From contig SVLW01000010.1 of assembly GCA_015067705.1 (NCBI GenBank), forward strand, positions 2,434 to 66,433: a DNA stretch of 64,000 bases, read 5' to 3'. The notes beneath the pieces are model-generated. The model was not told the DNA's origin. It worked only from the letters and a program-made list of their open reading frames with translations, and searched no databases. The number at the start of each line of letters is the position of its first letter. Position 1 is the first letter of the stretch. Below, piece after piece: positions 5,352-30,709 of this stretch. This DNA comes from Oscillospiraceae bacterium (GTDB taxonomy: Bacteria; Bacillota; Clostridia; Oscillospirales; QAMX01). The position numbers and the translations under genes were made by a program.

Positions 5352-6021
5352 ATCCTGCCTCCCAGCGATAGCCTACATTCCGCACGGTTTCGATCATCCT
5401 GCCATAGCCGTCCAGTTTCTGGCGCAGGGTGCGGATATGGGAATCCAGCGTGCGGGAATCGCCCATATAGTCCAGTTTCCACACCTGAGAGAAGAGCTGT
5501 TCTCTGGTATAAACCATGCCGGGATGGGAAAGAAACATCCGAAGCAGCTCAAATTCCTTGTATGTCAGCAGAACCCGGCTGCCGTCCACGCTGACCGTAT
5601 GCTCGTCCAGATTGACCACCAGTCCGCCCGCCTTCAGGAGCTTTGACACCTGCTGGGGCTGGCTGCGGCGCAGGACGGCCTTCACCCGGGACACCATCTC
5701 CATCATGCTGAACGGCTTTACGATATAATCATCCGCGCCCAGATCCAGGCCGCGGATGCGGTCATATTCCTGCCCCTTGGCGGTGGCCATGATCACGGGG
5801 ATTCGGCTGTACTCCATGGATTCCTTCATCCCGGACAGAAGCTCGATACCGTCCATGCCGGGCAGCATCACATCCAAAACAACCAGTTCCGGCTGTTCTT
5901 TTTTCAGCGCTTCCCAAAAGGAAAGGCCATCTGCAAAGCTCTTTGTTTCAAATCCGGCGGAGTTCAGCGCATAGATTGCAATGTCGCGGATCGCCGCGTC
6001 ATCCTCAACATACCAGATCAT
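5341..6021 (-). CDS. phoP: OmpR-family response regulator (PhoP/PhoB-like)
   Basis: Receiver domain (MIWYVEDD, DVMLPGMDG) plus a winged-helix C-terminus (RTLDSHIRTLRQKL, VRNVGYRW). The start was moved to the internal ATG at 6021. The gene overlaps phoR by 11 nt. Confidence 0.88.
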   Translation of the reverse strand: MIWYVEDDAAIRDIAIYALNSAGFETKSFADGLSFWEALKKEQPELVVLDVMLPGMDGIELLSGMKESMEYSRIPVIMATAKGQEYDRIRGLDLGADDYIVKPFSMMEMVSRVKAVLRRSQPQQVSKLLKAGGLVVNLDEHTVSVDGSRVLLTYKEFELLRMFLSHPGMVYTREQLFSQVWKLDYMGDSRTLDSHIRTLRQKLDGYGRMIETVRNVGYRWEAGYDK

Positions 6022-7431: not shown

Positions 7432-8285
7432 AAACTTCTCCTTTTTGCGAAATACTTCTGCACCAAAGTCGCTGCAAAGTTGATCACAACGGTCAGCACC
7501 ATCAGAATGGCGGCGATGGCAAAAGCCACGCCGAATTCTCCCTGTTCCTTTGCGTAGACATAGAGGGCAACGGTCAGAGTCGCGCCGGGCGCCGCCAGAC
7601 CGTCAATGATACCGTTCACCGCATGGGCAAAGCCGGCGGTGAAGAGCAGTGCTGCCGATTCGCCCAGGATCCGGCCGACAGACAGAATGCATCCCGTGAT
7701 GACGCCGTCCACACAGCCGGGAAGGACCACCGTGCGGACCACCCGCCATTTTCCGGCGCCCAGACCAAAGGCGCCTTCCCGGTAGGACTGGGGAACGGTT
7801 TTCAGGCTCTCCTGGGTGGTGCGCATAATGGTGGGCAGGTTCATGATCACCAGCGTCAGCGCACCGGCCATCAGACAGGTGCCCATGGAGTTTGAAAACA
7901 GCAGCATACCCACCAGACCGTAGATGATGGAAGGAATGCCGGAAAGGGTCTCGGCGGCATATTCGATAACGCCAACCACTTTTTTATTGGATGCGTACTC
8001 GGTGAGATAAATGGCCGCACCCACGCCCAGAGGCAGCACGATCACAAGCGTTGCCAGCACGATATAGACGGTATTCAGAATATCCGGCAGGATGCCGATG
8101 CGCTCCGTCAGATAGCTGGGATTTGTGGACAGCAGCTCCCAGGTGATGCCCGGAACGCCCTTCCCCAGCACATAGAGCAGCAGGAAGAGCACCAGCGCAG
8201 CAGTCAGACCCGCCGACAGCAGCATCAGCGCCTTCATCAGCACCGCAAAGCCTTTTCTCTTTTTGGATAACGATTGATTCAGCAT
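7428..8285 (-). CDS. pstA: Phosphate ABC transporter permease PstA
   Basis: Six-TM permease carrying the EAA-like motif '[15 protein letters not shown]'. It overlaps pstB by 4 nt. Confidence 0.9.
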
Positions 8286-10437: not shown

Positions 10438-10600
10438 CTATTAACAGTTATTTAAGTAGTTGGCGCATAATTTCTCGCACAACCGGATAATCTCGTACCA
10501 CCGTAAATGTCCGGCAAGGTCAATGCCAACGCAGACTGCCATCGCCCATCGGCTTAAGGCTGGCATCTCCCTGCATTATTTGCCCCTCCAAAAGAAAAAA

Positions 10601-10903
10601 TCAATCCTCTTCGCCGCAAACCCAGAAGTCTCCGCCCTCAATTCTAAGAGGACGCCCTTCCACAAGACTGTCGGCCATCTTTTTTCTTGCATTGTTGTAG
10701 ATGCGCTGTACAGTAGTCCGTGCCACTTGCATATACATACCGCACACTTCCTGGCTAAAACCCTCTTTGTCAATCAGACGAACCGCTTCATATTCATCGA
10801 CCGTCAGAACAACAGGGAGCTTCTCTTCCCTTGCTGGAACCGGTACAAACGCTTTTACCTCAGGAAGCTTACACACCCGTCTGCTCTTGATCCGTCTCGA
10901 CAT
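10601..10903 (-). CDS. DUF134/UPF0251 family small DNA-binding protein
   Basis: Typical 'KLPEVKAF.P', 'LTVDEYEA.RL.D.EG.SQEE.A..M.VSR.TV.R.Y..ARKK.A' pattern and about 100 aa. Confidence 0.75.
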   Translation of the reverse strand: MSRRIKSRRVCKLPEVKAFVPVPAREEKLPVVLTVDEYEAVRLIDKEGFSQEVCGMYMQVARTTVQRIYNNARKKMADSLVEGRPLRIEGGDFWVCGEED

Positions 10904-10930
10904 AAAAATACCCCTACTCCGTTTCTATTC

Positions 10931-10999
10931 CCATTATACCGCCCTTTATGGGCATATGTCAACAATCTAATTGACATATGCCCATAAAGCAGATATAAT
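10931..10999. promoter_or_regulatory. Back-to-back divergent consensus promoters embedded in a perfect 19-bp inverted repeat
   Basis: Arms 10944-10962 CTTTATGGGCATATGTCAA and 10971-10989 TTGACATATGCCCATAAAG, separated by an 8-bp spacer. Plus strand: TTGACA(10971)-17 nt-TATAAT(10994). Minus strand: TTGACA(10962-10957)-18 nt-TATAAT(10938-10933). Confidence 0.6.
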
Positions 11000-11023
11000 G
11001 ATGTTTGGTAAGGAGGGGACAAT

Positions 11024-11683
11024 ATGAACTTCCAAGATTACTTTCCCATATGGAGCAAACTGAGCACGATTCAGCAGAACAGATTATCCGAAGCTTTGAT
11101 CACCAAAACGACCGCCAAAGGAACGATGATTCATAATGGCGGCACGGACTGTACCGGTCTGCTTCTGGTGAAATCCGGTCAGCTCCGGGCATACATTCTT
11201 TCAGACGAGGGCCGTGAGATCACCATCTATCGTCTGTTTGACCGGGATATGTGTTTGTTCTCCGCCTCCTGCATCATGCGCTCCATTCAGTTTGATGTGA
11301 CCATCGAAGCAGAGAAGGACACCGAACTTTGGATGATTCCCTCCGAGATTTATCAAAATCTGATGTCCGAATCCGCACCGGTGGCCAATTACACCAATGA
11401 GTTGATGGCTGCCCGCTTCTCGGATGTCATGTGGCTGATCGAACAGATCATGTGGAAAAGCCTGGATAAGCGGGTTGCGGCCTTTTTGCTGGAGGAAGCT
11501 TCCATTGAAGGAACTGACAGGTTGAAAATCACCCACGAATCCATTGCCAACCATCTCGGCTCCCACCGGGAGGTCATCACCCGGATGCTCCGCTACTTCC
11601 AGAATGAAGGTATGGTCAAACTGTCCCGGGGCGTTGTGGAAATCACTGACACAGCGAAACTGAGAGAATTAAGCGAACAATAA
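11024..11683 (+). CDS. Crp/Fnr family transcriptional regulator
   Basis: N-terminal cNMP-binding-like beta-barrel and a C-terminal HTH 'THESIANHLGSHREVITRMLRYFQNEG'. Confidence 0.85.
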   Translation: MNFQDYFPIWSKLSTIQQNRLSEALITKTTAKGTMIHNGGTDCTGLLLVKSGQLRAYILSDEGREITIYRLFDRDMCLFSASCIMRSIQFDVTIEAEKDTELWMIPSEIYQNLMSESAPVANYTNELMAARFSDVMWLIEQIMWKSLDKRVAAFLLEEASIEGTDRLKITHESIANHLGSHREVITRMLRYFQNEGMVKLSRGVVEITDTAKLRELSEQ

Positions 11684-11904
11684 GCAAATGTCCGCCGCTG
11701 CAGCCGCAGCGGCGGACATTTTTCTGTTCTCAGGCAATTTCGGCAAACCGATAACCGGCATGTCAATTTCCTCCTTCTGAGAGAAATTTGCTTTCTGATC
11801 ACACGATATCGGAATGGGAGGATATTTTCCGTGATGACATCACCGTTTCCCAACAAAAAACCACGCTCTCCGAACTTCGGAAAGCGTGGTCGCTGGTTGA
11901 CGGC

Positions 11905-13593
11905 TTACTTGTCCATGCCGCAGGCAAAGGATGCTTCGATCAATGCCCGGTCATTCATCAACGCATCATAGAACCGGAAGCCACCGGCAAAATTGTATGC
12001 TTCAAAGCCATACCCCTCCAGAATCCGGGTGGCAATATAACTGCGCAGACCGCTCTGGCAGATGACATAGACGGGTTTTCCGGCTTCGATCTCCCCGATC
12101 CGTTCCCGCAGTTCATCCACCGGGATATTCCGGAAGCCATCGATATGTCCCCGGCTGTACTCCTCCACCGTCCGGGTATCCAGCAGCGTCACACTGCCGT
12201 CCCGGGGCAGCATGGCGGCATCGGCCAGATGCCACTGCTTCAAACCCTTGGAGATATTATCGATCATGAAGCCCACCATATTCACCGGGTCCTTGGCGGA
12301 GGAGTAAGGCGGCGCATAGGCAAGATCCAGATCTTTCAGTTCCGTTGCCTTCATACCGGCATGGATGGCAGTTGCCAGCACATCGATGCGCTTATCCACA
12401 CCATCATAGCCCACGATCTGAGCGCCCAGTAGACGATAGGTTTCCTTTTCAAAGACCACCTTCATGGTCATCAGCTTGCCGCCGGGGTAATAGCCCGCGT
12501 GGCTCATAGGAGAAAGGATCACGGTGTCCACATCCAACCCGGATTTTCGGGCGTTGGTTTCGTTGATGCCGGTGGTGGCTGCAGTCATGTCAAATATCTT
12601 GATCACGCTGCTGCCCTGGCTGCCTGCGTAACGGCTGTCGCCGCCGCAGATATTGTCCGCCGCAATTCTTCCCTGCTTGTTGGCCGGGCCGGCAAGAGCA
12701 ATCAGCGCATCCGCTCCGGTGACATAGTGCTTTACCTGCACCGCATCGCCAACCGCATAGATGTCGGGGACGGAAGTCTCCATCCGATCGTTTACCAGAA
12801 TACTGCCCTTGACACCAAGCGCCAGACCGGCATCTTTCGCAAGGGTGGATTCAGGGCTGACACCGATGGCGAGGATCACCATATCGGCATGAAGCGGAGC
12901 ATTGTCATTTAACAGCACATCTATGCCGTCCTCTTTTTCTTCAAAACCCTTCACAGCATTCCCCAGAGCCAGCTTGACGCCGTGTTTTCTCATCTCTGCA
13001 TGAATGAAAGCAGCCATGTCCGCATCAAAAGGACTCATCAACTGTTTACTCAATTCGACAACCGTCACATCCATACCCAGCTCCCGCAGGTTTTCCGCCA
13101 GCTCAACACCAATGAAACCGCCGCCAACCATCACGGCAGACTTTGGTTTCCGGTGATCCACAAATTCCTTGATCCGGAACGTGTCCTCCACAGTTCGTAA
13201 GGTAAACAGCCTGTCACTATCCATCCCCGGGAGGCCCGGCCATACAGGCTTTGCGCCAGGAGAAAGAAGAAGCTTATCATAATGCTCTTCCAATTCTTCG
13301 CCGGTTTCCAGATTCTTTACGGACACGGTCTTTCTGTCAGGATGAATTGCGGTAACCTCATGCCGCACCTTCATGTGGATGCGAAAACGAGAGAGGAAGC
13401 TCTCCGGGGTCTGGAGTGTCAGATCTTCGGGATCTTCAATGACACCGCCGATATAGTACGGCAGACCACAGTTGGCATAGGAAATATAGCCCGACCGCTC
13501 GAACACAACGATTTCAGCCTGCTCATTCAGTCTGCGGATTCTTGCTGCCGCAGTGGCTCCGCCTGCCACGCCGCCTACGATCACAACTTTCAT
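11905..13593 (-). CDS. CoA-disulfide reductase family flavoprotein fused to a C-terminal rhodanese domain (persulfide/polysulfide reductase-like)
   Basis: FAD fold 'VVIVGGVAGGATAAAR', redox Cys 'SYANCGLPYY', NAD fold 'VGGGFIGVE', C-terminal rhodanese loop 'VICQSGLRS'. The start was set at the ATG at 13593. Confidence 0.85.
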   Translation of the reverse strand: MKVVIVGGVAGGATAAARIRRLNEQAEIVVFERSGYISYANCGLPYYIGGVIEDPEDLTLQTPESFLSRFRIHMKVRHEVTAIHPDRKTVSVKNLETGEELEEHYDKLLLSPGAKPVWPGLPGMDSDRLFTLRTVEDTFRIKEFVDHRKPKSAVMVGGGFIGVELAENLRELGMDVTVVELSKQLMSPFDADMAAFIHAEMRKHGVKLALGNAVKGFEEKEDGIDVLLNDNAPLHADMVILAIGVSPESTLAKDAGLALGVKGSILVNDRMETSVPDIYAVGDAVQVKHYVTGADALIALAGPANKQGRIAADNICGGDSRYAGSQGSSVIKIFDMTAATTGINETNARKSGLDVDTVILSPMSHAGYYPGGKLMTMKVVFEKETYRLLGAQIVGYDGVDKRIDVLATAIHAGMKATELKDLDLAYAPPYSSAKDPVNMVGFMIDNISKGLKQWHLADAAMLPRDGSVTLLDTRTVEEYSRGHIDGFRNIPVDELRERIGEIEAGKPVYVICQSGLRSYIATRILEGYGFEAYNFAGGFRFYDALMNDRALIEASFACGMDK

Positions 13594-13594
13594 G

Positions 13595-13915
13595 TTATCT
13601 TTCCACCTTTCCGGAATAGGCGGCAATACCGCCGATATTTTGAACATTGGTATATCCCATCCGCTGCAGCATAGCGGTTGCCTGACGGCTTCTGCCGCCT
13701 GAATAGCAGTAAACAAACAGTGGGATATTCTGATTGTCCGCTATAGAGCTTATTTTGTCAAGCTGCTGCAGCGGCACATTTTTGCTGCCGGGAATATGAC
13801 CTTCCCGGTATTCCTGGGGCGTGCGTACATCCAAAAGGGTCGCTCCGTTGGTATTACGATACTCCATAACGCCCTGATTGATGTCAGGCTGTTTCAAAAA
13901 ATCGAAGAATCCCAT
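13595..13915 (-). CDS. Single-domain rhodanese (sulfurtransferase)
   Basis: Active-site loop 'VYCYSGGRSRQA', 106 aa. The stop lies 1 nt from the downstream start. Confidence 0.85.
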   Translation of the reverse strand: MGFFDFLKQPDINQGVMEYRNTNGATLLDVRTPQEYREGHIPGSKNVPLQQLDKISSIADNQNIPLFVYCYSGGRSRQATAMLQRMGYTNVQNIGGIAAYSGKVER

Positions 13916-15989: not shown

Positions 15990-16049
15990 ATGACCATTCC
16001 GTTTGCATACTTCTATTATTATCTGTCAAGGGCTGCCCGCATCCTGTGA
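15990..16049 (+). CDS. Candidate leader peptide MTIPFAYFYYYLSRAARIL (Tyr/Phe-rich)
   Basis: SD GGAAGGAG lies 5-6 nt upstream. It has 19 codons, with 4 Tyr and 2 Phe within residues 5-11. Hairpins and a terminator follow it, ahead of DAHP synthase. Confidence 0.55.
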   Translation: MTIPFAYFYYYLSRAARIL

Positions 16050-16097
16050 AGTCCGAGAGAACGCCATAGATTCTCTCGCCAAACCACAAATTGGACA

Positions 16098-16150
16098 GTC
16101 CGTATTCGTCGTGCCATTTTACTGCAAACGAATGCGGACTTTTCTTTTTC
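16098..16150 (+). terminator. Intrinsic terminator (attenuator) in the aro leader
   Basis: 12-bp stem GTCCGTATTCGT/ACGAATGCGGAC with one G-U pair, followed by TTTTCTTTTTC. It ends 33 nt before the DAHP synthase ATG. Confidence 0.65.
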
Positions 16151-16182
16151 CCCGAACCATTTCACGAAAGAAGGCATCCCAT

Positions 16183-17211
16183 ATGCACATGACCATCCAC
16201 AGAAAGCTTCCGGAACCCCAGGAAGTCAAAAAAGAATTCCCGTTAAGCGAACGCATGGCACAGGAGAAGGCAGAGCGCGACCGGCGCATCTGCGCCGTGT
16301 TCGACGGCCACAGCGACCAGTTTCTTCTGATCATCGGCCCCTGCTCCGCCGATCACAGCGAGCCCGTGCTGGAATATATTGCAAGACTCCGCAGAATCCA
16401 GGAACAGGTGGCGGAGAAGATCATCCTCATTCCCCGCATCTACACCAATAAGCCCCGCACCACCGGACAGGGTTATAAGGGCATGCTGCACCAGCCCGAT
16501 CCGGAGGCAAAGCCGGATATGTACCGCGGTCTTGTCTCCATTCGGGAGCTGCATCTGGCCGCGCTGCGAGATTATGGCTTCTCCTGCGCCGACGAAATGC
16601 TCTATCCGGAGAACTACGAATACCTCTCGGATCTCCTCTCTTATCATGCCGTGGGCGCCCGGTCGGTCGAGAACCAACAGCATCGCCTCACCGCCAGCGG
16701 CATCGAGGTGCCTGTAGGCATGAAGAACCCCACCGGCGGCGACCTGGGTGTGATGATGAACTCCATCGTGGCGGCCCAGTCCGGTCACACCTTCCTCTAC
16801 CGGGGATGGGAAGTCACCAGCGCCGGCAACCCCTATGCCCACGCGATCCTCCGCGGCTATACGGACTACAGCGGCAGAAACGTGTCGAACTACCATTACG
16901 AGGATCTTCTGCGGGTGGAGGAGCTTTATGAGAAATCCAATCTCACAAACCCCTCCGTCATCGTGGACACCAACCACAGCAATTCCGGCAAGCAGTATTT
17001 AGAGCAGATCCGCATCGCCAAGGACATCGTTCACAGCCGCAACCAGAACGCCACCATCCGCCGTCTGGTGAAGGGCCTCATGATCGAGAGCTATCTGGAG
17101 GACGGCGCACAGAGCGCCGGGGAGCATGTCTTCGGCAAATCCATCACGGATCCTTGCCTCGGATGGGAAAAGACCGAGCGCCTGATCCTGGATCTGGCGG
17201 AAAAATTATAA
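16183..17211 (+). CDS. 3-deoxy-7-phosphoheptulonate (DAHP) synthase, class I
   Basis: 'LLIIGPCS', 'RIYTNKPRTT..GYKGM', 'VGARSVENQQHR', 'GMKNPTGG'. The start was set at the ATG at 16183, after the terminator. Confidence 0.85.
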   Translation: MHMTIHRKLPEPQEVKKEFPLSERMAQEKAERDRRICAVFDGHSDQFLLIIGPCSADHSEPVLEYIARLRRIQEQVAEKIILIPRIYTNKPRTTGQGYKGMLHQPDPEAKPDMYRGLVSIRELHLAALRDYGFSCADEMLYPENYEYLSDLLSYHAVGARSVENQQHRLTASGIEVPVGMKNPTGGDLGVMMNSIVAAQSGHTFLYRGWEVTSAGNPYAHAILRGYTDYSGRNVSNYHYEDLLRVEELYEKSNLTNPSVIVDTNHSNSGKQYLEQIRIAKDIVHSRNQNATIRRLVKGLMIESYLEDGAQSAGEHVFGKSITDPCLGWEKTERLILDLAEKL

Positions 17212-17236
17212 GAATCCATAAAAAGGGGAAATACTC

Positions 17237-18094
17237 ATGATCGTAGATATCTCAAAACGGATTTTGATCGTCGGCCTGGGCTTACTCGGCGGCAGCTATG
17301 CCCGGGTCTTAAGGCGCTTTGGCTTCCCGATCAGCGCCATCACGCTGGAACAGCGGGACATCGACTACGCCATCCGGGAGGGCATCATTGACGAGGGCTC
17401 CACCCAGCCCGACCCGGAGCTGGTCGGCGCGGCGGATCTCATCGTGTTCGCCCTGTATCCCCATACGTTTGTTGAATGGATCGAACAGTATCAGGGTCTT
17501 TTCAAAAGCGGGGCCCTGATCACGGACGTCACCGGCGTCAAGGGCAGCATCGTCTATCGCATCCAGGGGATGCTGCGGCCGGATGTGGAGTTCATCGCGG
17601 CCCATCCCATGGCGGGCCGGGAGGTGTCCGGCGTGGAGAACAGCACCGACCGGATGTTCTCGGGCGCCAACTACATCGTCACGCCCACAGCGCGCAACAC
17701 CCCCGAGGCCATCGAAACCTGTATGGAGCTGGGGCGGCTTCTGGGCTTTTCCCATGTGGCCACGCTGTCCCCGGAGGAGCACGACGAGATGATCGGCTTC
17801 CTCTCCCAGTTGACCCACTGCATCGCCATCACGCTGATGACCTGCAACGACAAGGAGCACATGGAGCAGTTCACCGGCGACTCCTTCCGGGATCTGACCC
17901 GCATCGCCCGGATCAACGACCTGATGTGGAGCGAGCTCTTCCTGGAAAACAAGTCCGCGCTTTTGGAGCAGATGGATCTCTTCCTTACCCAGTTTACCCG
18001 TCTGAAAACCATGCTGGAGGAAGAGGACGTGGAGGGCATGCGGGCGATGATGCGCCACTCCACCGAGAGAAGGGCGCTTTTTGACAAGAAATAA
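17237..18094 (+). CDS. tyrA: Prephenate dehydrogenase
   Basis: Rossmann motif 'ILIVGLGLLGGS', 'HPMAGRE', 'SPEEHDEMIGFLSQLTH'. Confidence 0.85.
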   Translation: MIVDISKRILIVGLGLLGGSYARVLRRFGFPISAITLEQRDIDYAIREGIIDEGSTQPDPELVGAADLIVFALYPHTFVEWIEQYQGLFKSGALITDVTGVKGSIVYRIQGMLRPDVEFIAAHPMAGREVSGVENSTDRMFSGANYIVTPTARNTPEAIETCMELGRLLGFSHVATLSPEEHDEMIGFLSQLTHCIAITLMTCNDKEHMEQFTGDSFRDLTRIARINDLMWSELFLENKSALLEQMDLFLTQFTRLKTMLEEEDVEGMRAMMRHSTERRALFDKK

Positions 18095-18203
18095 GCCTCC
18101 CGCCCCGGAACTTCCGTTTTTTGCCAGATTCCATTTGCTTTTTCCCGTTTTTTGTGCTAGTCTGAGAATAAGAACCAAGCATCCGGAAAAGGAGAATACC
18201 GCT

Positions 18204-19268
18204 ATGACATCAACAGAACGTATTCGCGCCATGATCGCGGGCAAGCCCGTGGATCAGATTTGTCAGTCTGCCTGGTGGCATATGCCCATGGTGGATAAAA
18301 ACCCCAAGGATCTGGCCAAGGCCATCATTGATTTTACGGAAAACAACCACTTTGACTTTGTGAAGATGATGTACAACACCCTCTTCTTCGCCCAGAACTT
18401 CGGCGTGGAGGTGGCATACTCCCAGGATCCCCTGGTCTGGATGCCCAAGGTGGTGCATCAGGTGATCAATCACCCTGCGGATTTCAAGAAATTCCGTCCT
18501 ATCTCTGTGACGGAGGGCAATCTGGGCCGCCAGCTGGAGGCCACCAAGATTGTCATCGACCACTTCCAGGGCACCGTCCCCATCGTGGGCACCACCTTTA
18601 CGGATCTCTCCTTCTATAAGGATATTCTGACCTTTGGCTGGAACGAATGTGTCCTGGCCGGTATGGAATACCACCGGCAGGAGCTACATGATGCGCTGGA
18701 AATCATCAACGAGCAGAACGTGCGCTGGATCGAGGCGTTGGCGGAGATTGGCGTGGACGGGATGTTCATTGCCTCCCACTATGCCACCGACGACTGGCTG
18801 GACGACGCCGCATTTGATGAGTTCTGCCGCCCCTATGATCTGAAGCTCATCGAGGCCGCGAACCGGAAGATGTGGTTCAATATGTTCCACGTCCACGGCA
18901 GCGGAAAGCTCTCCTTCCACCGCTTTGTGGATTATCCTGTCCAGGCCCTCACCTGGGAGGATATCTGGGGCGCACCGGACTGCACCAGTTTCGCCGACGC
19001 CGCCAAACTGGTGGACGACCGGAAGATCTTCATCGGCGGCATCGAGATGTGGAGCGATTACTACAGCGCCTCAAACGACCGCGAGGAAGTGAAGGAACGC
19101 TTAAAGCAGCGCTGCCGCGACGCCGTGAACGCCGTGGGCAAGGACCGCTTTATTCTGGCGCCCGGCTGCGGCGCACCCCTGGACGTGCCGCCCTATCGCT
19201 TCACCCTCCAGCATGAGGCCGTCATGGAAGTGACGGAAGAACTGCGGGCAGCGGGAAAATGCTGCTGA
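18204..19268 (+). CDS. Uroporphyrinogen decarboxylase (URO-D) family protein (MtaA/CmuA-like methyltransferase fold)
   Basis: N-terminal 'ERIRAMIAGKPVD' and overall URO-D-like length and pattern. The start was set at the ATG at 18204, which has SD AAGGAG. Confidence 0.7.
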   Translation: MTSTERIRAMIAGKPVDQICQSAWWHMPMVDKNPKDLAKAIIDFTENNHFDFVKMMYNTLFFAQNFGVEVAYSQDPLVWMPKVVHQVINHPADFKKFRPISVTEGNLGRQLEATKIVIDHFQGTVPIVGTTFTDLSFYKDILTFGWNECVLAGMEYHRQELHDALEIINEQNVRWIEALAEIGVDGMFIASHYATDDWLDDAAFDEFCRPYDLKLIEAANRKMWFNMFHVHGSGKLSFHRFVDYPVQALTWEDIWGAPDCTSFADAAKLVDDRKIFIGGIEMWSDYYSASNDREEVKERLKQRCRDAVNAVGKDRFILAPGCGAPLDVPPYRFTLQHEAVMEVTEELRAAGKCC

Positions 19269-19288
19269 AAAAAAGTTTTCCGAACCCC

Positions 19289-19317
19289 TTGACTTTTCCT
19301 CTTTACCGTAGTAAAAT
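19289..19317 (+). promoter_or_regulatory. SigA-type promoter of the T-box leader
   Basis: TTGACT(19289)-17 nt-TAAAAT(19312). Confidence 0.55.
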
Positions 19318-19339
19318 CGTTTTCATCAACCAAATACGT

Positions 19340-19630
19340 TGTATACCGCAAATGCGTGGAGCAGAAACCAGTAGGTTGGAAAGAACCGCCAAGAGAATTG
19401 CCGGATGGTGCGAGGCAAGGGGGGCGTCCTTCTCGAATTCATTCTGTTAGCAGTGCCCTGAATGGGAGCGATCCCTAGTAGGAGGCAACGGGTGTTCCCG
19501 TTACAGAACTAAGGTATGTCAGTACCTGACAAGGCCGCAATCGCGAGAGCGCGGCGAACTGAGGTGGTACCACGGGATCTGATCATCTCGTCCTCTGTAT
19601 TCTTCATCGGAATGCAGAGGACGTTTTTTC
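19340..19630 (+). promoter_or_regulatory. T-box riboswitch leader, specifier UUC (Phe)
   Basis: Stem I elements: AGUA (19370s), AGAGA (19391-19396) and distal GGUGCGA (19407-19413). The specifier loop reads GAA-UUC-A, with UUC at 19438-19440. The conserved T-box sequence AACUGAGGUGGUACCACGG lies at 19557-19575. The terminator CGTCCTCTG/CAGAGGACG plus T6 lies at 19589-19629. Confidence 0.85.
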
Positions 19631-19698
19631 TTTGCAAACCGAGTTTCTAAAGTACGCCGCGGGGAATCCCCCGGGCAAAGCAGGAAAGGGTCACACAT

Positions 19699-21006
19699 AT
19701 GGCACAGAATTATTACCAGAAAGAAATTGAAACCATGTCCCGCGAGGAGATGCGGAAACTCCAGTCGGAAAAACTCGTCAAACAGGTGAAGCACGTCTAT
19801 GAAAACGTGCCCTATTACCGCAATCTCATGGAGGAAAAGGGCGTCACGCCCGCAGACATCCAGAGCATCGATGATCTCCACAAGCTGCCTTTCCTTTCAA
19901 AGGCCGATCTGCGGGACGCCTATCCCTACGGCCTCCTGGCAAAGCCCCTTGCGGACTGTGTCCGCATCCAGTCCACCTCCGGCACCACCGGCCGCCGCGT
20001 GGTGGCATTCTACACCCAGAATGACATCAACCTCTGGGAGGACTGCTGCGCCCGCGCCATCATGGCCGCAGGCGGCACCAACGAGGATGTCTGCCAGGTG
20101 GCATACGGCTACGGCCTGTTCACCGGCGGCCCCGGCCTCAACGGCGGTTCTCACAAGGTGGGCTGTCTGACGCTGCCCATGTCCTCCGGTAATACCGAGC
20201 GGCAGATCCAGTTCATGATGGACTTAAACGCCACCATTCTCTGCTGCACGCCCTCTTACGCCGCCTATATCGGCGAGACCCTGAAGGAACAGGGCTATAC
20301 CCCCGACCAGATCCCGCTGAAGGCCGGTATCTTCGGTGCAGAGCCCTGGACCGAGGAAATGCGCCGCGGCATCGAGGCCTCCCTTGGCATCAAGGCCTAT
20401 GATATCTATGGTCTTACGGAGACCACCGGCCCCGGTGTGGCATTCGAATGCAGCGAGCAGACCGGCATGCACGTGAACGAGGACCACTTCTTCGCCGAGA
20501 TCATCGATCCGGACACCGGTGAAGTGCTGCCCGAGGGCAGCAAGGGCGAGCTGGTGTTCACCTCTCTTGATAAGGAGGCCTTCCCCCTCCTGCGTTACCG
20601 CACCCGCGATATCTGCGTGCTGTCCCGCGAAAAGTGTTCCTGCGGCCGCACCCTCATCAAGATGGCAAAGCCCATGGGCAGAACCGACGATATGCTCATC
20701 ATCCGCGGCGTCAACGTGTTCCCCAGCCAGATCGAAACCGTCCTCCTGAACGAGGGCTATCAGCCCAACTACCAGATCGTGGTGGATCGCGTCCGCAACA
20801 ACGACACCTTCGAGGTCAACGTGGAAATGAGCCCCGATCAGTTCACCGATAAGGTCAGCGAGATCCTCACCATGGAGAAGTCCCTGGCCAACGCCATGAA
20901 GGCCATGCTGGGCATCAATCCGGCAGTGCATCTGGTGGCGCCCAAGACCATCGCCCGCAGCGAAGGCAAGGCCGTCCGTGTCATCGACAAGCGCAAGCTG
21001 ATCTGA
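19699..21006 (+). CDS. paaK: Phenylacetate-CoA ligase family adenylate-forming enzyme
   Basis: 'SSGTTG' AMP-binding motif, 'YGLTE', 'RTDDMLIIRGVNVFPSQIE', about 435 aa (PaaK-like). Confidence 0.85.
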   Translation: MAQNYYQKEIETMSREEMRKLQSEKLVKQVKHVYENVPYYRNLMEEKGVTPADIQSIDDLHKLPFLSKADLRDAYPYGLLAKPLADCVRIQSTSGTTGRRVVAFYTQNDINLWEDCCARAIMAAGGTNEDVCQVAYGYGLFTGGPGLNGGSHKVGCLTLPMSSGNTERQIQFMMDLNATILCCTPSYAAYIGETLKEQGYTPDQIPLKAGIFGAEPWTEEMRRGIEASLGIKAYDIYGLTETTGPGVAFECSEQTGMHVNEDHFFAEIIDPDTGEVLPEGSKGELVFTSLDKEAFPLLRYRTRDICVLSREKCSCGRTLIKMAKPMGRTDDMLIIRGVNVFPSQIETVLLNEGYQPNYQIVVDRVRNNDTFEVNVEMSPDQFTDKVSEILTMEKSLANAMKAMLGINPAVHLVAPKTIARSEGKAVRVIDKRKLI

Positions 21007-21030: not shown

Positions 21031-21471
21031 TTGTCAGATATGGCCATCAAGCAGTTAACGATTTTTGTGCAGAACAAAAGAGGCACCATCGTCCCCGTGA
21101 CGAAAATCCTGGCAGATAACGAAGTGAATCTGAGAGCACTTTCCATCGCGGAAACCAATGACTTCGGCATTCTGCGTCTCATCGTCAATGACGAGGTCAC
21201 CGCAGAAAAGGCTCTGCGGGACGCCGGCTATCTTCTGAAGGTCATCGACGTGGTGGGCGTGAAGATCGGCGACCAGCCCGGCAAGCTCTCCTCTGCTCTG
21301 GAGGTGCTGGACAACGCGGATATCAACGTGGAATACCTCTACGCCTTTATGGCAAGAACGGAGCGTCATGCCTATGTGGTGCTGCGCGTGGAGGATAACG
21401 CCGCCGCAGAGGCAGTCCTGACGAACGCCGGCTTCCACATGATCACCGAGGCAGATATCAATAAGCTGTAA
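21031..21471 (+). CDS. ACT domain-containing protein
   Basis: Two ACT-like beta-alpha-beta-beta-alpha-beta repeats (LTIFVQNKRGTIVPVTKILAD...). It has a classic position directly after paaK-like genes. Confidence 0.78.
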   Translation: MSDMAIKQLTIFVQNKRGTIVPVTKILADNEVNLRALSIAETNDFGILRLIVNDEVTAEKALRDAGYLLKVIDVVGVKIGDQPGKLSSALEVLDNADINVEYLYAFMARTERHAYVVLRVEDNAAAEAVLTNAGFHMITEADINKL

Positions 21472-21484
21472 TCAGAAATACGAA

Positions 21485-21513
21485 ACCCCCGGCCATCCGG
21501 CCGGGGGTTTTTC
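21485..21513 (+). terminator. Intrinsic terminator after the paaK-ACT operon
   Basis: Stem ACCCCCGGCC/GGCCGGGGGT followed by TTTTT. Confidence 0.75.
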
Positions 21514-21526
21514 CTTATGACAGGGC

Positions 21527-22477
21527 TCAAATTCCCTTGAAAAGCACTTTCATGGAATTCCAGAGATAATACGGCACCAGGAAGTCGGTGTGGTAGAAAT
21601 CGGAGATGGCAAAATAGATATTATTCTTCACAGGATCCGTACCGTAGGAGAAGCCGTCGAACTTGGTGACGAACTTCATCTGGCGCTTCATTTCCTCTGC
21701 GTCGGGATTGCCGCAGGAGGCATAGATAAAGAAGGGCAGCTCGGGATTTTTCTGCATGCCAGCGGTGAGGAAGTCATAGACCTCGGCCTCCGTGGGGGTC
21801 TCGCCCCGGGGCTTGCCGGCGCCGATGTGGCCGCTCATGGGCGCGTACCAGCGGAAATACTCGAAATCCTTACTGATAATATTCCAGGTACAGCCGCAGC
21901 CGCGGGAATAACCGGTGAAGGCGCGATGGTCGCGGGTGGCGCGAATGCCCTCCCGGGAGGGATCGGTGAGGTAGGTATTGTACTTCATCTCCACCAGGGG
22001 GATGATGTCCTCGACAATCTCCTTGTAGTAATTTCCCTTGATCTCGGGCCAGCCGCCGTCGCCTGCCGCCACGCGGCCGGAGACCACACGCTCGCCATAA
22101 TCGCCCTCGGGATCCATATAATAGGTGATAAAGGCCATGATGCAGGGCTCGATCTCACCGGACTCGAAGAGCATATCGATCATGGGCTTGTTGCCGCCCA
22201 CGCCAAAGATCTGCGGGTCACAGGTGTTGCCATGCTGGAAATAGAGGACGTTATATTTCTTTTCCTTGTCCTCGGGGTCATAGCCGTAGGGCAGATAGAC
22301 ATAGCAGTATTTCTGATAGGTCTTGCCGTCCTCATAGACTGCCGTGGTGTACGCAAGGCGCTCGCATTTACCGGCCTTTGTGGGCACGCCGGTGCGGATC
22401 CGGGGATGTTCCTCAAACACGGTCTCGAAATCGATGACCTCGCCGGGCTTCGTGATCACTTTACGGAATTCGCTCAT
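21527..22477 (-). CDS. Alpha/beta-hydrolase 'putative esterase' family protein (feruloyl/xylan esterase-like)
   Basis: 'Y.YLP.GYD', nucleophile elbow 'GYSRG'. The start was set at the ATG at 22477, which has SD AGGAG. Confidence 0.72.
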   Translation of the reverse strand: MSEFRKVITKPGEVIDFETVFEEHPRIRTGVPTKAGKCERLAYTTAVYEDGKTYQKYCYVYLPYGYDPEDKEKKYNVLYFQHGNTCDPQIFGVGGNKPMIDMLFESGEIEPCIMAFITYYMDPEGDYGERVVSGRVAAGDGGWPEIKGNYYKEIVEDIIPLVEMKYNTYLTDPSREGIRATRDHRAFTGYSRGCGCTWNIISKDFEYFRWYAPMSGHIGAGKPRGETPTEAEVYDFLTAGMQKNPELPFFIYASCGNPDAEEMKRQMKFVTKFDGFSYGTDPVKNNIYFAISDFYHTDFLVPYYLWNSMKVLFKGI

Positions 22478-22659
22478 CTCGATTGCTCCTTTCTCAACAT
22501 GGTGGATACGGTCGGATAGAGAGGCCCCAGAATCAGGCCTCAGCACTCTGGCTACAGTATACATTTTTTGAAAGGAATCGGCAAGCGGTTTTGTGAATTT
22601 TTATATCGTTTTCTCAAAAAAATCGGAATTCGACAGGATTCCGGGAAAGAATCGTCTGC

Positions 22660-28347: not shown

Positions 28348-28686
28348 TCACTCCTTCATTCCCATATATTTCAATCTACTTTCTATAGCACCTTTCGTTC
28401 TCCCGTGCGCCTTGGCAATATCAGAAATCTTCATTCTCTTCTGAAACTCATCTTTCAAGTGCGTTTCTTCCTCGACAGTCCAAGGATTTCCAGCGTTCTG
28501 CAATCCATCTCTTGACATGGAATGTACTGCTTTAGAATCCGTTTGCACCGCTTCCAACAGCGTATACAGTGCACGGATCACGTCAGGTGATTCTAAAACA
28601 CTTTCCTTTGGCAGCAGTTCTCCCGTAGTAGGGTCCACGCCGCTTGCAAGTGTGTGTACAATCTCTTTTGCCCGGGTAATATCCAT
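28348..28686 (-). CDS. Hypothetical protein with a C-terminal Myb/SANT-like HTH
   Basis: 'NAGNPWTVEEETHLKDEF...ISDIAKAHGRTKGAIESRLKYMG' pattern. The start was set at the ATG at 28686, which has an SD. Confidence 0.55.
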   Translation of the reverse strand: MDITRAKEIVHTLASGVDPTTGELLPKESVLESPDVIRALYTLLEAVQTDSKAVHSMSRDGLQNAGNPWTVEEETHLKDEFQKRMKISDIAKAHGRTKGAIESRLKYMGMKE

Positions 28687-28753
28687 ATGCCAGACCTCCT
28701 CTCCAAAGAAAAAGCAGGCGATTCCCGGAGAAATCGCCTGCGATGCGGTCAAT

Positions 28754-30439
28754 TTATGCCAGAATCGGCTTCATGGCCTCGGCCAGGACATTCTTCTGAG
28801 CCTCGGCCTCGGCGAGATCCTTACCAAGCGTGGTGTAATAGATCTTGATCTTGGGCTCCGTGCCGGAGGGACGGGCGATGACGGTGGCGCCGCCATCCAG
28901 ACCATAAACCAGCACGTTCGCGGCGGGCAGACCGGTCTCCTCGGTCTTCTGATAATCGGTGACCTTCACGACCTTGTATCCGCCGATCTCTGCGGGAGGA
29001 TTCTTCCGCAGGTCAGACATGATGCCGGCCATCTTGTCCATACCGGACAGGCCCGGGAACTCAAAGGAATCCACCTTATTCAGGTAACGGCCGTACTTAG
29101 CGTAAATAGCCTCCAGGCGCTCCTTCACGGAAGAGCCGATGGAACGGTAATAGGCCGCCATTTCACAGATCAGCATGGAGCCGATGATGGCATCCTTATC
29201 CCGGACATAGGGGCCGGCCAGATAGCCATAGGACTCCTCAAAGCCCAGGATGAAGCGCTCCACCTCGCCTGCTGCCTCGAGACGGGCGATCTGGTCGCCG
29301 ATCCACTTGAAGCCGGTGAGGACGTTACGCATCTCAACGCCGTAGTTGGCGGCGACCGCGTCGGCCAGAGGCGTGGAGACCAGGCTCTTCACGGCCACGG
29401 GATTCTTTGGCATGGTGCCCTTTTCGATGCGGCCCTCGCAGATGTAGTCCAGCAGCAGCACGCCCACTTCGTTGCCGGACACCAGCTCATAGGAGCCGTC
29501 CGGGCACTTCATGGCGATGCCCACGCGGTCGGCATCCGGGTCGGTGGCCAGCATCAGGTCTGCGCCGGTCTTCTTGGCCAGCTCCAGACCCAGGCGCAGT
29601 GCCTCGAAAATCTCGGGGTTCGGATAGGGGCAGGTGGGGAAATTGCCGTCCGGATACTGCTGTTCCGGCACGATGGTGATATCGTCGATGCCGATATCAC
29701 GGAGAATCCGCATAACGGGCACCAGGCCGGAACCGTTCAGCGGAGAATACACCAGCTTCAGGCCCGCGGTCTTGCAGAGACCGGGACGGACAGAGCAAGC
29801 CTTGATGGCGTCGTAAAGTGCTTCCTTGCACTCGTCGCCTACATATTCGATGAGACCCTGTGCCACGCCCTCCTCGAAGGAGATGAGCTTGGCGCCGGTG
29901 AGGATGTCGGTGTTCTGGATCTCGGCATAGACCACGGCGGCGGCGTCATCGGTCATCTGGCAGCCATCGGGGCCATAGGCCTTATAGCCGTTATACTTGG
30001 CGGGATTGTGGGAGGCCGTGATCATGACGCCGGCATTGGCGCCATAGAAACGGGTGGCGAAGGACAGCGCGGGAACAGGCATCAGCGCGTCATAAATGCG
30101 AACCTTAATGCCGTTGGCCGCCAGCACACGGGCGGTCTCTTTGGCAAACACGTCGGCATTGATGCGGCTGTCGTAGGAAACAGCCACCAGCTGGTTTCCG
30201 CCCTGGGTCTTGACCCAGTTGGCAAGGCCCTGGGTGGCCTGGCGCACCACATAGATATTCATCCGGTTGGTACCGGCGCCCAGCACGCCGCGCAGACCCG
30301 CCGTGCCGAATTTCAGTGCAACCGCGAAACGATCCTTGATTTCTTCTTCCTGGCCTTCGATGGCCTGCAGTTCGGCGGTGAGCGCCGCATCCTCCAGATC
30401 GGCAGCCAGCCAGCGCTTGTAGTCGTCCATGTACATCAT
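28754..30439 (-). CDS. Phosphoglucomutase/phosphomannomutase family phospho-sugar mutase
   Basis: Phosphoserine loop 'ITASHNPAKYNGYK', Mg loop 'TDPDADR', sugar loop 'GFEESYG'. Confidence 0.9.
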   Translation of the reverse strand: MMYMDDYKRWLAADLEDAALTAELQAIEGQEEEIKDRFAVALKFGTAGLRGVLGAGTNRMNIYVVRQATQGLANWVKTQGGNQLVAVSYDSRINADVFAKETARVLAANGIKVRIYDALMPVPALSFATRFYGANAGVMITASHNPAKYNGYKAYGPDGCQMTDDAAAVVYAEIQNTDILTGAKLISFEEGVAQGLIEYVGDECKEALYDAIKACSVRPGLCKTAGLKLVYSPLNGSGLVPVMRILRDIGIDDITIVPEQQYPDGNFPTCPYPNPEIFEALRLGLELAKKTGADLMLATDPDADRVGIAMKCPDGSYELVSGNEVGVLLLDYICEGRIEKGTMPKNPVAVKSLVSTPLADAVAANYGVEMRNVLTGFKWIGDQIARLEAAGEVERFILGFEESYGYLAGPYVRDKDAIIGSMLICEMAAYYRSIGSSVKERLEAIYAKYGRYLNKVDSFEFPGLSGMDKMAGIMSDLRKNPPAEIGGYKVVKVTDYQKTEETGLPAANVLVYGLDGGATVIARPSGTEPKIKIYYTTLGKDLAEAEAQKNVLAEAMKPILA

Positions 30440-30709
30440 ATCACCTTAACTCCTTGTATGTATTTGAGAAACCTATGCAATCCGTATAATAATACTATAT
30501 TCGATTGCGGGAATCTTGTCAATATTTATCAGAAGAAACCACGCTTCTTTTTTACAAAAAACGCCCTTTCCGGGCGCCTCGGCATTTTCCCGGGAAATGG
30601 GAGAGAAATTTTCCGAAAATTTGACGGTTTTTGAAAATTGAAAAGAAGATTTATTTGTGATATAGTATTTTTATTCACTTCAAGCTGATTCTTAACCGAG
30701 GTGGTTTTC

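Follow-up and report, generated by a model that had tools for sequence, protein, structure and literature searches.

The closest described systems are the canonical transcriptional T-boxes (RF00230). Examples are the leaders of B. subtilis tyrS and glyQS and the Phe T-boxes of pheS, phenylalanine biosynthesis genes and transporters. The leader described here lies in a window of 64,000 nucleotides, the window being the whole stretch of DNA that was analyzed. It has the same Stem I S-turn, AG bulge, distal loop and GAA-codon-N loop as the canonical elements, and likewise Stem II, Stem IIA/B and Stem III, a T-box sequence of 14 nt, a UGGN bulge, a terminator that competes with an antiterminator, and an NNC specifier. 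It differs from them in what it controls, namely genes for an aryl-acid-CoA ligase and for an ACT-pair protein rather than for an aminoacyl-tRNA synthetase, de novo biosynthesis or a transporter. A further difference concerns the base after the codon; one third of the leaders studied here have C at this position. The ligase target is missing from the T-box surveys of Wels 2008 and Sun 2013; Vitreschak 2008 or Gutierrez-Preciado 2009 may mention it. Literature searches turned up no paper that describes T-box control of this ligase. The PaaK-family ligase-ACT operon is a new member of the T-box regulon, and the salvage route in which it would act was already known physiologically.

It has long been recognized that anaerobes of the rumen and gut use phenylacetate as a source of phenylalanine and volatile fatty acids as a source of branched-chain amino acids, with the genes and their control poorly defined. 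Phenylalanine synthesis from phenylacetate in rumen anaerobes was reportedly described by Allison in 1965. Phenylalanine can come from phenylacetate in the rumen (PMC7356843), and Methanococcus maripaludis converts aryl acids to aromatic amino acids via an indolepyruvate/arylpyruvate:ferredoxin oxidoreductase, IOR (Porat 2004, as cited in PMC4162585). The chemistry proposed for our locus is the same, from aryl acid to aryl-CoA, then to arylpyruvate by IOR, followed by transamination. The M. maripaludis and rumen routes are physiological and genetic demonstrations for which the sensor is not known, whereas here we have a defined cis-regulatory element, read from the sequence, that would tie activation to the charging of tRNA-Phe.

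For the ligase itself, the nearest comparison is the Bacteroides iorAB/arylacetate-CoA ligase cluster, in which the IOR-adjacent ligase is an arylacetate-CoA ligase by assay and was proposed in 2026 to have a biosynthetic role (PMC13285125). The window ligase and B. thetaiotaomicron PaaK (4R1L) are homologues with 46% full-length identity, and among solved structures the ACT product of the window is closest to the B. thetaiotaomicron ACT-pair protein 2F06. As in the Bacteroides cluster, iorAB lies directly beside a ligase copy in 8 of the orthologous loci described below; unlike in that cluster, the ligase in the window stands apart from any IOR gene. One survey found no T-box in Bacteroidetes/Chlorobi genomes (Wels 2008), so no tRNA-sensing control is known for the Bacteroides cluster. 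The Geobacter iorAB-paaK operon, which is listed under tryptophan biosynthesis and has a conserved 5' sequence, is a precedent for an anabolic, cis-regulated unit of IOR and PaaK (PMC2700814). It differs from our operon in gene order and amino acid, and its 5' element is not called a T-box, a term that, for that genome, the same source applies only to the element of leuA. An earlier sequence-only reading of this DNA had taken PaaK-family enzymes to be usually annotated as catabolic; this has to be qualified, as a biosynthetic role for an IOR-linked ligase had already been proposed (PMC13285125; PMC2700814).

The Burkholderia cenocepacia enzymes PaaK1 and PaaK2 (2Y27, 2Y4N, 2Y4O) share the family and domain architecture of the window ligase, which is 48% identical over its full length to the biochemically characterized PaaK1 (2Y27). 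Catabolic PaaK enzymes are encoded in paa operons with ring-oxygenase genes, under protein repressors that respond to phenylacetyl-CoA. Unlike these, the window ligase has no paa catabolic genes beside it and falls under the cut-off of the PaaK equivalog model TIGR02155.

Identification of the T-box Leader

The Rfam covariance model RF00230 matched positions 19348-19598 of the window over its whole length (model positions 1-219), with a score of 89.1 bits and an E value of 4.2e-20. This match, together with covariation and a terminator, confirms the segment as a full-length T-box leader, as the sequence-only reading had proposed. All features described here are on the forward (+) strand unless noted. 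The curated gathering score of RF00230 is 93 bits, and because the leader falls 3.9 bits under it, a default Rfam scan of the window is empty. We therefore rejected the empty gathering-threshold scan as an argument against a T-box. In a formal RF00230 scan, 13 orthologous ligase-operon leaders scored between 94.0 and 115.9 bits. Rfam matches adjoining the leader, to COG3943 RNA (19200-19279, E 0.1) and uup (E 9), were rejected as chance, and two open reading frames over the leader (19259-19450 on the forward strand and 19519-19881 on the reverse strand) were treated as spurious. A sigma-70-type promoter-like site, TTGACT-17 nt-TAAAAT (19289-19317), agrees with the consensus at 10 of 12 positions, and on this consensus match it probably marks where the leader transcript begins.

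Stem I (19348-19452) was placed by the Rfam alignment and shows covariation in helices 1, 2 and 5. It carries the S-turn AGUA (19370-19373), the AG bulge AGAGA (19392-19396), the distal loop GGUGCGA (19407-19413) and the 3' side of the specifier loop, GAA-UUC-A (19435-19441). Its lower helix (19362-19366 with 19442-19446) is conserved or covarying. Lack of exceptional stability is usual for a motif-rich element such as Stem I, and folded alone it was thermodynamically unexceptional (z +1.6 vs. shuffles); its support comes from covariation and not from thermodynamics. The Rfam alignment also placed Stem II (19454-19487, compensatory changes in three of six pairs), the Stem IIA/B element CGGGUGUUCCCG (19489-19500, with an invariant helix) and Stem III (19534-19555, compensatory changes in six of seven pairs).

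The antiterminator (19557-19598) contains the T-box sequence AACUGAGGUGGUACCACGG at 19557-19575, in which the bulge UGGU (19565-19568) is present in all 74 leaders compared. Its predicted fold has an energy of −10.7 kcal/mol and leaves a 7-nt bulge exposed. From its sequence, UGGU would be expected to pair with the ACCA 3' end of the tRNA. UGGU also predicts A73, which is the usual discriminator base of bacterial tRNA-Phe; a tRNA-Phe gene from which to read this base was found neither in the window nor in the 80 orthologous loci. The antiterminator is overlapped by an intrinsic terminator consisting of a 15-bp hairpin (19589-19623) and a T6 run (19624-19629). The terminator fold is more stable, at −24.1 kcal/mol (z −8.1, with none of 200 shuffles equally stable), and 93.6% of its cells are paired across the 74 leaders. 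Positions 19589-19595 belong both to the 5' arm of the terminator and to the 3' arm of the antiterminator, and this overlap makes the two structures mutually exclusive. The AGUA, AGAGA and GGUGCGA motifs, the T-box sequence and the terminator with its T6 run that the sequence-only reading had named were all found in the sequence, and the specifier at the position it had given.

Covariation was assessed on 74 distinct leaders by projecting the Rfam structure onto their alignment. Consensus pairs were paired in 91.1% of cells, compared to at most 57% when the partners were slid. Compensatory changes on both sides were found in 25 of 46 pairs, and the observed covariation score was not reached by any of 500 shuffles. 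Two central helices of Stem I were poorly paired (62-66%), which is probably due to misalignment.

Specifier Codon and Register

The specifier codon is UUC (Phe) at 19438-19440, as the sequence-only reading had called it. It is UUC in 73 of the 74 distinct leaders, and the preceding GAA is invariant. Because the posterior probability of the covariance model in the specifier loop is low (PP about 5), the codon register was set independently of the model. The 7-nt 3' loop GAAUUCA is closed by an invariant pair, A19366-U19442, which extends the lower helix, and this flanking pair and the loop geometry fix the register as UUC. The same register yields an NNC codon in all four leader classes found in these loci, namely UUC (pheA/DAHPS), UAC, CUC (leuA) and AUC, whereas a +1 shift would turn the Phe, Leu and Ile specifiers all into Ser codons. 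The predicted pairing partner of the UUC codon is the GAA anticodon of tRNA-Phe. The base 3' of the codon is A in 48 leaders, C in 25 and G in one; T-boxes usually have a purine at this position.

The Ligase-ACT Operon

The gene following the leader (19699-21006) encodes a 435-aa PaaK-family, AMP-forming aryl-acid-CoA ligase, as identified by Pfam, TIGR02155 and PDB homologues. It contains an AMP-binding domain (PF00501, 52 bits) and an AMP-binding_C_2 domain (PF14535, 104 bits). The protein scored 521.5 bits against the NCBIfam PaaK equivalog TIGR02155, under the threshold of 646.3, and 496 against a haloarchaeal PaaK model with a cut-off of 700. It was consequently filed as a PaaK-family aryl-acid-CoA ligase and not as a catabolic-PaaK equivalog, and its substrate could be arylacetates in general. 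In public records the orthologues are annotated as "phenylacetate--CoA ligase", and a homologue search returned orthologues with at least 89% identity among the matches listed. On this family relationship, the enzyme would be predicted to activate phenylacetate.

The second gene (21040-21471) starts 33 nt after the ligase stop codon, behind the Shine-Dalgarno sequence AAAGGAG; its true start is the ATG at 21040 and not the TTG at 21031. It encodes a 143-aa ACT-pair protein matching Pfam ACT_8 (PF19571) with 92.1 bits against a cut-off of 23.5, over model positions 1-139 of 141. An ACT_AHAS_ss match of 47 bits and a match to PDB 2F06 (E 9e-24) were also obtained. The gene lies 3' of the ligase in nearly all of the 80 loci. 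This invariant co-transcription with the ligase and the general role of ACT domains suggest a regulatory role, and we regard the protein as a candidate amino-acid-binding regulatory partner. The two-gene operon closes with a GC-rich hairpin (21483-21515; 12-bp stem with nine GC pairs) followed by a T-run, and this hairpin is shared with a convergent esterase-like gene at 21527-22564 on the reverse strand. A ligase-ACT operon downstream of the leader, as read from the sequence earlier, was thus recovered with Pfam-level identities.

Upstream of the leader, profile matches identified a separate transcription unit with a DAHP synthase (16003-17211) and a prephenate dehydrogenase (17237-18094), with no T-box 5' of it. 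As de novo shikimate-pathway genes are present in the window and in other loci, salvage is not obligatory. The sequence-only reading had found no IOR gene in the window; tblastn searches of the window with iorA, iorB, the symporter, pheA, aro genes and other ligases agreed with this, returning nothing, and no IOR, aminotransferase or arylacetate transporter was found in the 64 kb. Other paa catabolic genes were absent from both the window and the 80 loci.

Neighborhoods of the Orthologous Loci

The orthologous loci (n = 80) come from GTDB species representatives of related gut and rumen Clostridia. A T-box lies directly 5' of the ligase in 73 of them, and the specifier is UUC in 72. These 73 ligase-proximal leaders include none with UAC or UGG. 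In two more loci a UUC T-box heads a longer operon, DAHP synthase-ligase-ACT in L038 and symporter-ligase-ACT in L070, which brings the total to about 75 of 80. T-box control is not universal, as four orthologous loci (L049, L057, L068 and L071) lack the element. No other regulatory RNA was found in the ACT-to-pheA gap of L030 or 5' of the ligase-iorAB genes in L057 and L068.

Genes for aromatic amino acid synthesis recur beside the operon. DAHP synthase is a neighbor or operon partner of ligase-ACT in nine loci, and in six it lies 4-112 nt 3' of the ACT gene. In L030 and L039, ligase-ACT is followed by pheA-aroB-aroC-aroE/K-aroQ-aroA. The other recurrent neighbor is iorAB, whose products pass the NCBIfam equivalog cut-offs (iorA 729 vs. 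651; iorB 280 vs. 230). It directly adjoins a ligase gene copy in 8 of the 80 loci. In seven loci iorA/iorB is immediately upstream of the T-box-ligase-ACT unit, while the eighth iorAB locus (L041) has a separate paaK-iorA-iorB arrangement. In L057 and L068, a gap of only 30-37 nt separates iorAB from the ligase gene, and it contains no T-box. An SSF symporter gene is preceded by a Tyr (UAC) T-box in L034, L067 and L045 and by the Phe T-box in L070. That the PaaK-ACT pair supplies phenylalanine from phenylacetate, as suggested from the sequence, gains considerable support from the conservation of the leader, the pheA, aro and DAHP synthase partners and the iorAB neighbors, and the function itself is one that we infer.

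Proposed Mechanism and Alternatives

The RNA anatomy, the specifier, the conservation and covariation of the leader, the family-level gene identities and the Phe/shikimate and iorAB neighborhood links were all established computationally. The reading that we consider probable is that a transcription-attenuating tRNA-Phe T-box controls a ligase-ACT operon for the salvage of phenylacetate to phenylalanine. By default, the 15-bp terminator (19589-19623 with T6) would form and end transcription before the ligase. When phenylalanine is scarce, the GAA anticodon of uncharged tRNA-Phe would dock on the UUC specifier of Stem I, and its free ACCA end would pair with the UGGU bulge, stabilizing the weaker antiterminator and allowing RNA polymerase to read through. 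The ligase, induced in this manner by phenylalanine starvation, would convert phenylacetate of the gut or rumen (and possibly other arylacetates) to phenylacetyl-CoA. An IOR encoded elsewhere in the genome would then carry out reductive carboxylation of phenylacetyl-CoA to phenylpyruvate, from which an aminotransferase would produce phenylalanine. The most likely role of the ACT-pair protein is to bind an amino acid (Phe) and to exert fast allosteric feedback on the ligase or IOR.

The same switch could control a broad arylacetate-CoA ligase, with phenylacetate leading to Phe, 4-hydroxyphenylacetate to Tyr and indoleacetate to Trp, and tRNA-Phe serving as a proxy signal. Assays of the IOR-linked Bacteroides homologue used HPA, PA and IA, and it was named an arylacetate-CoA ligase; IOR enzymes accept phenyl-, hydroxyphenyl- and indole-pyruvate (PMC13285125). 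The position of the window ligase under the PaaK equivalog cut-off fits such breadth, as do the SSF symporters under Tyr T-boxes in three loci and under the Phe T-box in a fourth. Yet UUC is the specifier in 72 of the 73 ligase-proximal leaders and Tyr (UAC) or Trp (UGG) codons in none, and the operon partners include the Phe-specific pheA, so we consider a broad ligase unlikely. Much less likely still is a reading centered on the ACT protein, in which the link to phenylalanine would lie in this protein (serving, for example, DAHP synthase, prephenate dehydratase or IOR as a regulatory subunit) and the ligase would make an acyl-CoA for some purpose other than phenylalanine. ACT domains are classic amino-acid-binding regulatory modules, this one resembles the ACT of the AHAS small subunit, and DAHP synthase and pheA are frequent operon partners; but the first gene after the T-box is always the ligase and never the ACT gene, and the ligase is the most conserved partner, with 87-92% identity vs. 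65-80% for the ACT protein. The other recurrent neighbor, iorAB, is moreover a consumer of aryl-CoA, which also speaks against the ACT-centered reading.

The best-known role of PaaK is in aerobic phenylacetate degradation, and among characterized enzymes Burkholderia PaaK1 is the closest, from which it might be argued that the ligase is catabolic or detoxifying (removing or fermenting phenylacetate, as in the paa catabolon) and the T-box a lineage-specific accident. We give this very little credence, given that no other paa catabolic genes accompany the ligase in the window or the 80 loci and that induction by uncharged tRNA-Phe would be senseless for degrading a breakdown product of phenylalanine. 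The retention of the UUC specifier and covarying stems in 70+ species argues for selection, and the operon is fused with biosynthetic genes. Finally, the specifier may have been misread and another tRNA sensed, such as in a +1 register (UCN, Ser) or a −1 register (AUU, Ile). The low posterior probability in the loop would allow for this, and A, C or G after UUC all give synonymous Ser codons in the +1 register. Against it, the GAA-NNN-N loop is bounded by the invariant A-U pair and the NNC codons of the four leader classes agree with the genes that follow, whereas the +1 register would make three of them Ser, leaving only the faintest chance that the register is wrong.

Implications

In metagenomes, "phenylacetate-CoA ligase" is routinely taken as a marker of catabolism. 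The conserved tRNA-Phe-sensing switch is regulatory evidence that places this ligase in phenylalanine supply across a large uncultured clade, and it would correct the metagenome annotation of K01912, which is filed under "phenylalanine metabolism/degradation". Salvage under tRNA-Phe control also predicts cross-feeding on phenylacetate, a host-relevant metabolite and precursor of phenylacetylglutamine. For the widespread ACT_8 proteins of unknown function, the operon offers a concrete hypothesis.

More tentatively, and with somewhat less than an even chance in our estimation, the locus could belong to a T-box "organic-acid salvage regulon" in gut and rumen Oscillospirales-type Clostridia. In such a regulon, Phe would be linked to phenylacetate-CoA ligase, Ile to an MbcS-like ligase with fused HTH and cupin domains, for which 2-methylbutyrate is the presumed substrate, and Leu to a leuA-like gene and an acyl-CoA ligase fused to a TIM barrel, with isovalerate as the presumed substrate. 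The product of each ligase would enter a ferredoxin-dependent reductive carboxylation, and the ACT-pair protein would act as a previously unrecognized allosteric subunit of the ligase/IOR system that senses Phe. If true, the genetics and regulation of the amino-acid-from-volatile-fatty-acid nutrition, described physiologically in the 1960s, would be mapped for the first time. In related loci, Ile (AUC) and Leu (CUC) T-boxes were observed 5' of other acyl-CoA ligases.

T-Box Leader and Ligase-ACT Operon

The operon is preceded by a leader (19289–19698, forward strand) in which all motifs of the sequence-only reading were located. By sequence match, the leader carries a promoter-like TTGACT-17-TAAAAT (19289–19317), AGUA (19370–19373), AGAGA (19392–19396), GGUGCGA (19407–19413), GAA-UUC-A (19435–19441), and AACUGAGGUGGUACCACGG (19557–19575). 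A hairpin search placed the terminator, a 15-bp hairpin (19589–19623) followed by T6, on the same strand. An Rfam scan of the window at default threshold returned no match, because the leader scored 89.1 bits, slightly below the curated gathering score of 93 for the T-box model RF00230. The match nevertheless ran end to end (19348–19598, model positions 1–219, E 4.2e-20), and the leader was the sole T-box in the 64-kb window by Rfam search. Because orthologous leaders of other genomes scored 94.0–115.9 bits, the window leader is judged to belong to a true T-box lineage and to score somewhat low within it.

The first gene (19699–21006, +) encodes a 435-aa ligase with AMP-binding and AMP-binding_C_2 domains. 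Its top NCBIfam match was PaaK (TIGR02155; 521.5 bits, short of the 646.3 equivalog cut-off), and its full-length identity was 46% to B. thetaiotaomicron PaaK (4R1L) and 48% to Burkholderia PaaK1 (2Y27). Near orthologues are named phenylacetate--CoA ligase in public records. An AAAGGAG ribosome-binding site precedes the start codon of the second gene (ATG 21040, +), whose product is an ACT-pair protein (92 bits to Pfam ACT_8, 47 bits to ACT_AHAS_ss); its nearest solved relative, 2F06, was deposited as a "conserved hypothetical protein". These domain and family matches bear out the ligase-ACT operon proposed downstream of the leader. From hairpin search and sequence, the operon ends at a GC-rich hairpin and T-run (21483–21515, +).

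Family matches identified a separate upstream unit on the forward strand containing a MATE transporter, DAHP synthase, prephenate dehydrogenase, and a URO-D/MtaA-like gene. The last three form a tight string just upstream of the T-box (16003–19268, +), in which the URO-D/MtaA-CmuA-like methyltransferase-family gene overlaps tyrA by 14 nt.

RNA Structure and Specifier Codon

The Rfam consensus structure was projected on an alignment of 74 distinct leaders (the window and 73 orthologous loci). Paired cells made up 91.1%, compared with 36–57% when the 3′ partners were shifted by 1–3 columns; 25 of the 46 pairs changed on both sides, and none of 500 column shuffles matched the covariation score. 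Stem III, in which six of seven pairs were compensatory, supplied the bulk of this signal together with Stem II and the helices at the bottom and top of Stem I. In the middle of Stem I, two helices paired poorly (62–66%), which probably reflects misalignment, and Stem I by itself folded no more stably than shuffled controls (z +1.6). The terminator was conserved, with 93.6% of cells paired, and folded at −24.1 kcal/mol (z −8.1). The antiterminator, which has 19589–19595 in common with it, folded at only −10.7 kcal/mol with a 7-nt bulge exposed. The predicted energies are those expected of a default-off design in which tRNA would be required to stabilize the antiterminator. By mechanism, the element is an ordinary T-box.

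The RF00230 alignment sets GAA-UUCA on the consensus GAAauuca with low posterior probability in the loop, so the register was fixed independently of the covariance model. Among the 74 leaders, the GAA before the codon was invariant, the codon (19438–19440 in the window) was UUC in 73, and the following base was A in 48, C in 25, and G in one. One base further lies an invariant U that pairs with invariant A19366 and lengthens the lower helix (CAGAA/UUCUG), leaving exactly seven bases, GAA-NNN-N, on the 3′ side of the specifier loop. The structurally characterized glyQS T-box reportedly has the same arrangement. In this register, the four leader classes of these genomes read UUC, UAC, CUC, and AUC, NNC throughout, and all four codons fit the genes downstream. 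A +1 register was rejected, as it would read Ser in three of the four classes. The claimed Phe specifier is thus upheld. Every one of the 74 leaders has a UGGU T-box bulge, from which the discriminator is predicted to be A73; a search of the window and the 80 loci found no tRNA-Phe gene for comparison. The exceptional leader, L021:5652–5902 (+; 107 bits), carries UGC (Cys) through a single U-to-G difference, which could be a sequencing or assembly error in the MAG or a true specificity change.

Orthologous Loci and Gene Neighborhoods

Scanning one genome per GTDB species yielded 80 loci with ligase identities of 87–92%, all in Clostridia MAGs (labelled Acutalibacteraceae, Oscillospiraceae, Ruminococcus, and similar) mostly from ruminant and other animal guts. 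A T-box lay directly 5′ of the ligase in 73 of them (72 UUC, 1 UGC). Two more carried a UUC T-box at the head of a longer operon: DAHP synthase-ligase-ACT in L038 (gaps of 11 and 14 nt) and SSF symporter-ligase-ACT in L070 (8 and 13 nt). Four lacked a T-box (L049, L057, L068, and L071), and one was cut by a contig end (L022). In L038, two tandem TPP riboswitch aptamers (7810–7918 and 8106–8211, +; 67 and 76 bits) directly follow the ACT gene.

The ACT gene followed the ligase in nearly all loci, and the wider neighborhood was variable apart from some recurring partners. DAHP synthase lay 4–112 nt 3′ of ACT in six loci, and in L030 and L039 ACT was followed by pheA-aroB-aroC-aroE/K-aroQ-aroA, where pheA encodes chorismate mutase/prephenate dehydratase. 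Genes for indolepyruvate/arylpyruvate:ferredoxin oxidoreductase (IOR) were directly upstream of the ligase in seven loci (iorA, TIGR03336, 729 bits vs. a cut-off of 651; iorB, 280 vs. 230), most with a further AMP-binding ligase gene ahead of iorAB. A T-box separated iorB from the ligase in L058, L075, L076, L080, and L011; in L057 and L068 the gap was 30–37 nt, without a T-box. The L041 genome contains, at the same locus, two ligase paralogues, one T-box-linked and one IOR-linked; the latter is a partial paaK-like gene with iorA and iorB after it (10581–13303, −), on the strand opposite to the T-box-ligase-ACT unit.

The ligase was unusually conserved for species-level genomes of several family labels; adjoining ACT proteins were 65–80% identical and flanking genes almost wholly different. 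Either very strong purifying selection or horizontal spread of a T-box-ligase-ACT cassette would account for this.

Proposed Role in Phenylalanine Supply

T-boxes turn genes on when the cognate tRNA, here tRNA-Phe, is uncharged, and such control is expected where the gene products increase the amount of charged tRNA-Phe. Strong comparative context supports the earlier proposal that the ligase-ACT pair belongs to phenylalanine supply, because a UUC specifier is kept 5′ of the ligase in more than 70 species, the same switch covers the ligase and the first shikimate enzyme (DAHP synthase), and the ligase heads a pheA/aro string and adjoins IOR genes. Uncharged tRNA-Phe would bind the leader and induce the operon. 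Searches of the 64-kb window found no iorA/iorB, in agreement with the sequence-only reading, and no symporter, pheA, or other aro genes; IOR is presumably encoded elsewhere in this genome. The AHAS small subunit and other ACT regulatory subunits are the analogy for our proposal that the ACT protein binds Phe and exerts feedback on either the ligase or IOR.

A plausible rival is that the ligase is a broad arylacetate enzyme with substrates beyond phenylacetate, especially since the T-box of the adjoining symporter is Tyr-specific in three loci and Phe-specific in one. This SSF-family Na+/solute symporter, often next to the ligase, follows Tyr (UAC) T-boxes of 110–120 bits at L034:3666–3913 (+), L067 (core at 3903, +), and L045:6462–6706 (−), and a Phe (UUC) T-box at L070:4183–4417 (+). 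This suggests that it transports aromatic acids or aromatic amino acids and that its specificity signal varies between species.

Assignment of the ligase to phenylalanine supply is not new as an idea, given several precedents. In Methanococcus maripaludis, aromatic amino acids are made from aryl acids through IOR (Porat 2004, as cited in PMC4162585), and rumen cultures convert phenylacetate to phenylalanine (PMC7356843). A 2026 study showed by assay that an AMP-forming ligase beside a Bacteroides IOR is an arylacetate-CoA ligase, and argued that AMP-forming ligases favor the synthetic direction (PMC13285125). In a Geobacter genome paper, "tryptophan (iorAB-paaK)" appears in a list of biosynthetic operons whose 5′ sequences are conserved (PMC2700814). 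We found no description of tRNA-sensing control of this ligase in a literature search outside of which two major T-box surveys fell. The novelty is the T-box regulon target, not the mechanism or the pathway idea. The leader gives a way to test the regulation of a nutritional pathway that has long been known but is vaguely defined genetically, and "phenylacetate-CoA ligase" in gut metagenomes should not be taken as catabolic.

T-Boxes Preceding Other Acyl-CoA Ligases

Because Phe, Ile, and Leu T-boxes precede different acyl-CoA ligases, such control seems to recur in this clade. Ile (AUC) T-boxes (95–97 bits), a distinct class with GAC in place of GAA, lie 5′ of a 766-aa HTH_3-Cupin_2-AMP-binding protein at L013:915–1159 (+) and L022:4879–5121 (−), and also in L007, L017, L053, and L072. 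In L055, an Ile-class T-box precedes an ACT+metallo-beta-lactamase gene. The top NCBIfam match of the 766-aa protein was the acyl-CoA synthetase MbcS (456 bits, below cut-off), the staphylococcal 2-methylbutyrate/isobutyrate-CoA synthetase; Ile-controlled 2-methylbutyrate activation is possible. It is in any case unusual for a ligase to be fused to a DNA-binding domain.

Leu (CUC) T-boxes (124–125 bits) at L019:4734–4979 (+), L021:5276–5518 (−), L054 (core at 8037, +), and L010 (core at 8091, +) precede a leuA-like gene and, 1 nt after it, a gene for an 827-aa protein that joins a xylose-isomerase-like TIM barrel (AP_endonuc_2) to an AMP-binding acyl-CoA ligase. This unit is often directly 3′ of the ligase-ACT operon. 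Classically, rumen bacteria make Ile from 2-methylbutyrate and Leu from isovalerate, which the Ile and Leu patterns fit.

Other Features of the Window

Five large ORFs of 638–705 aa (3561–5594, +; 28517–30634, +; 46760–48676, −; 48995–51058, −; 51133–53184, +) matched no Pfam family at E ≤ 1e-5. Rfam gave a sub-threshold match to the Vibrio antisense RNA V_AS7 (13406–13574, +; 59 bits, E 1e-8; gathering score, 90). The matched stretch falls within a CoA-disulfide-reductase-like gene with a rhodanese domain (11905–13716, −), in antisense orientation, and probably reflects conserved coding sequence instead of an RNA. A type I restriction enzyme R-subunit-like gene (ResIII, EcoEI_R_C) occupies 4–2340 (+), from the window start.
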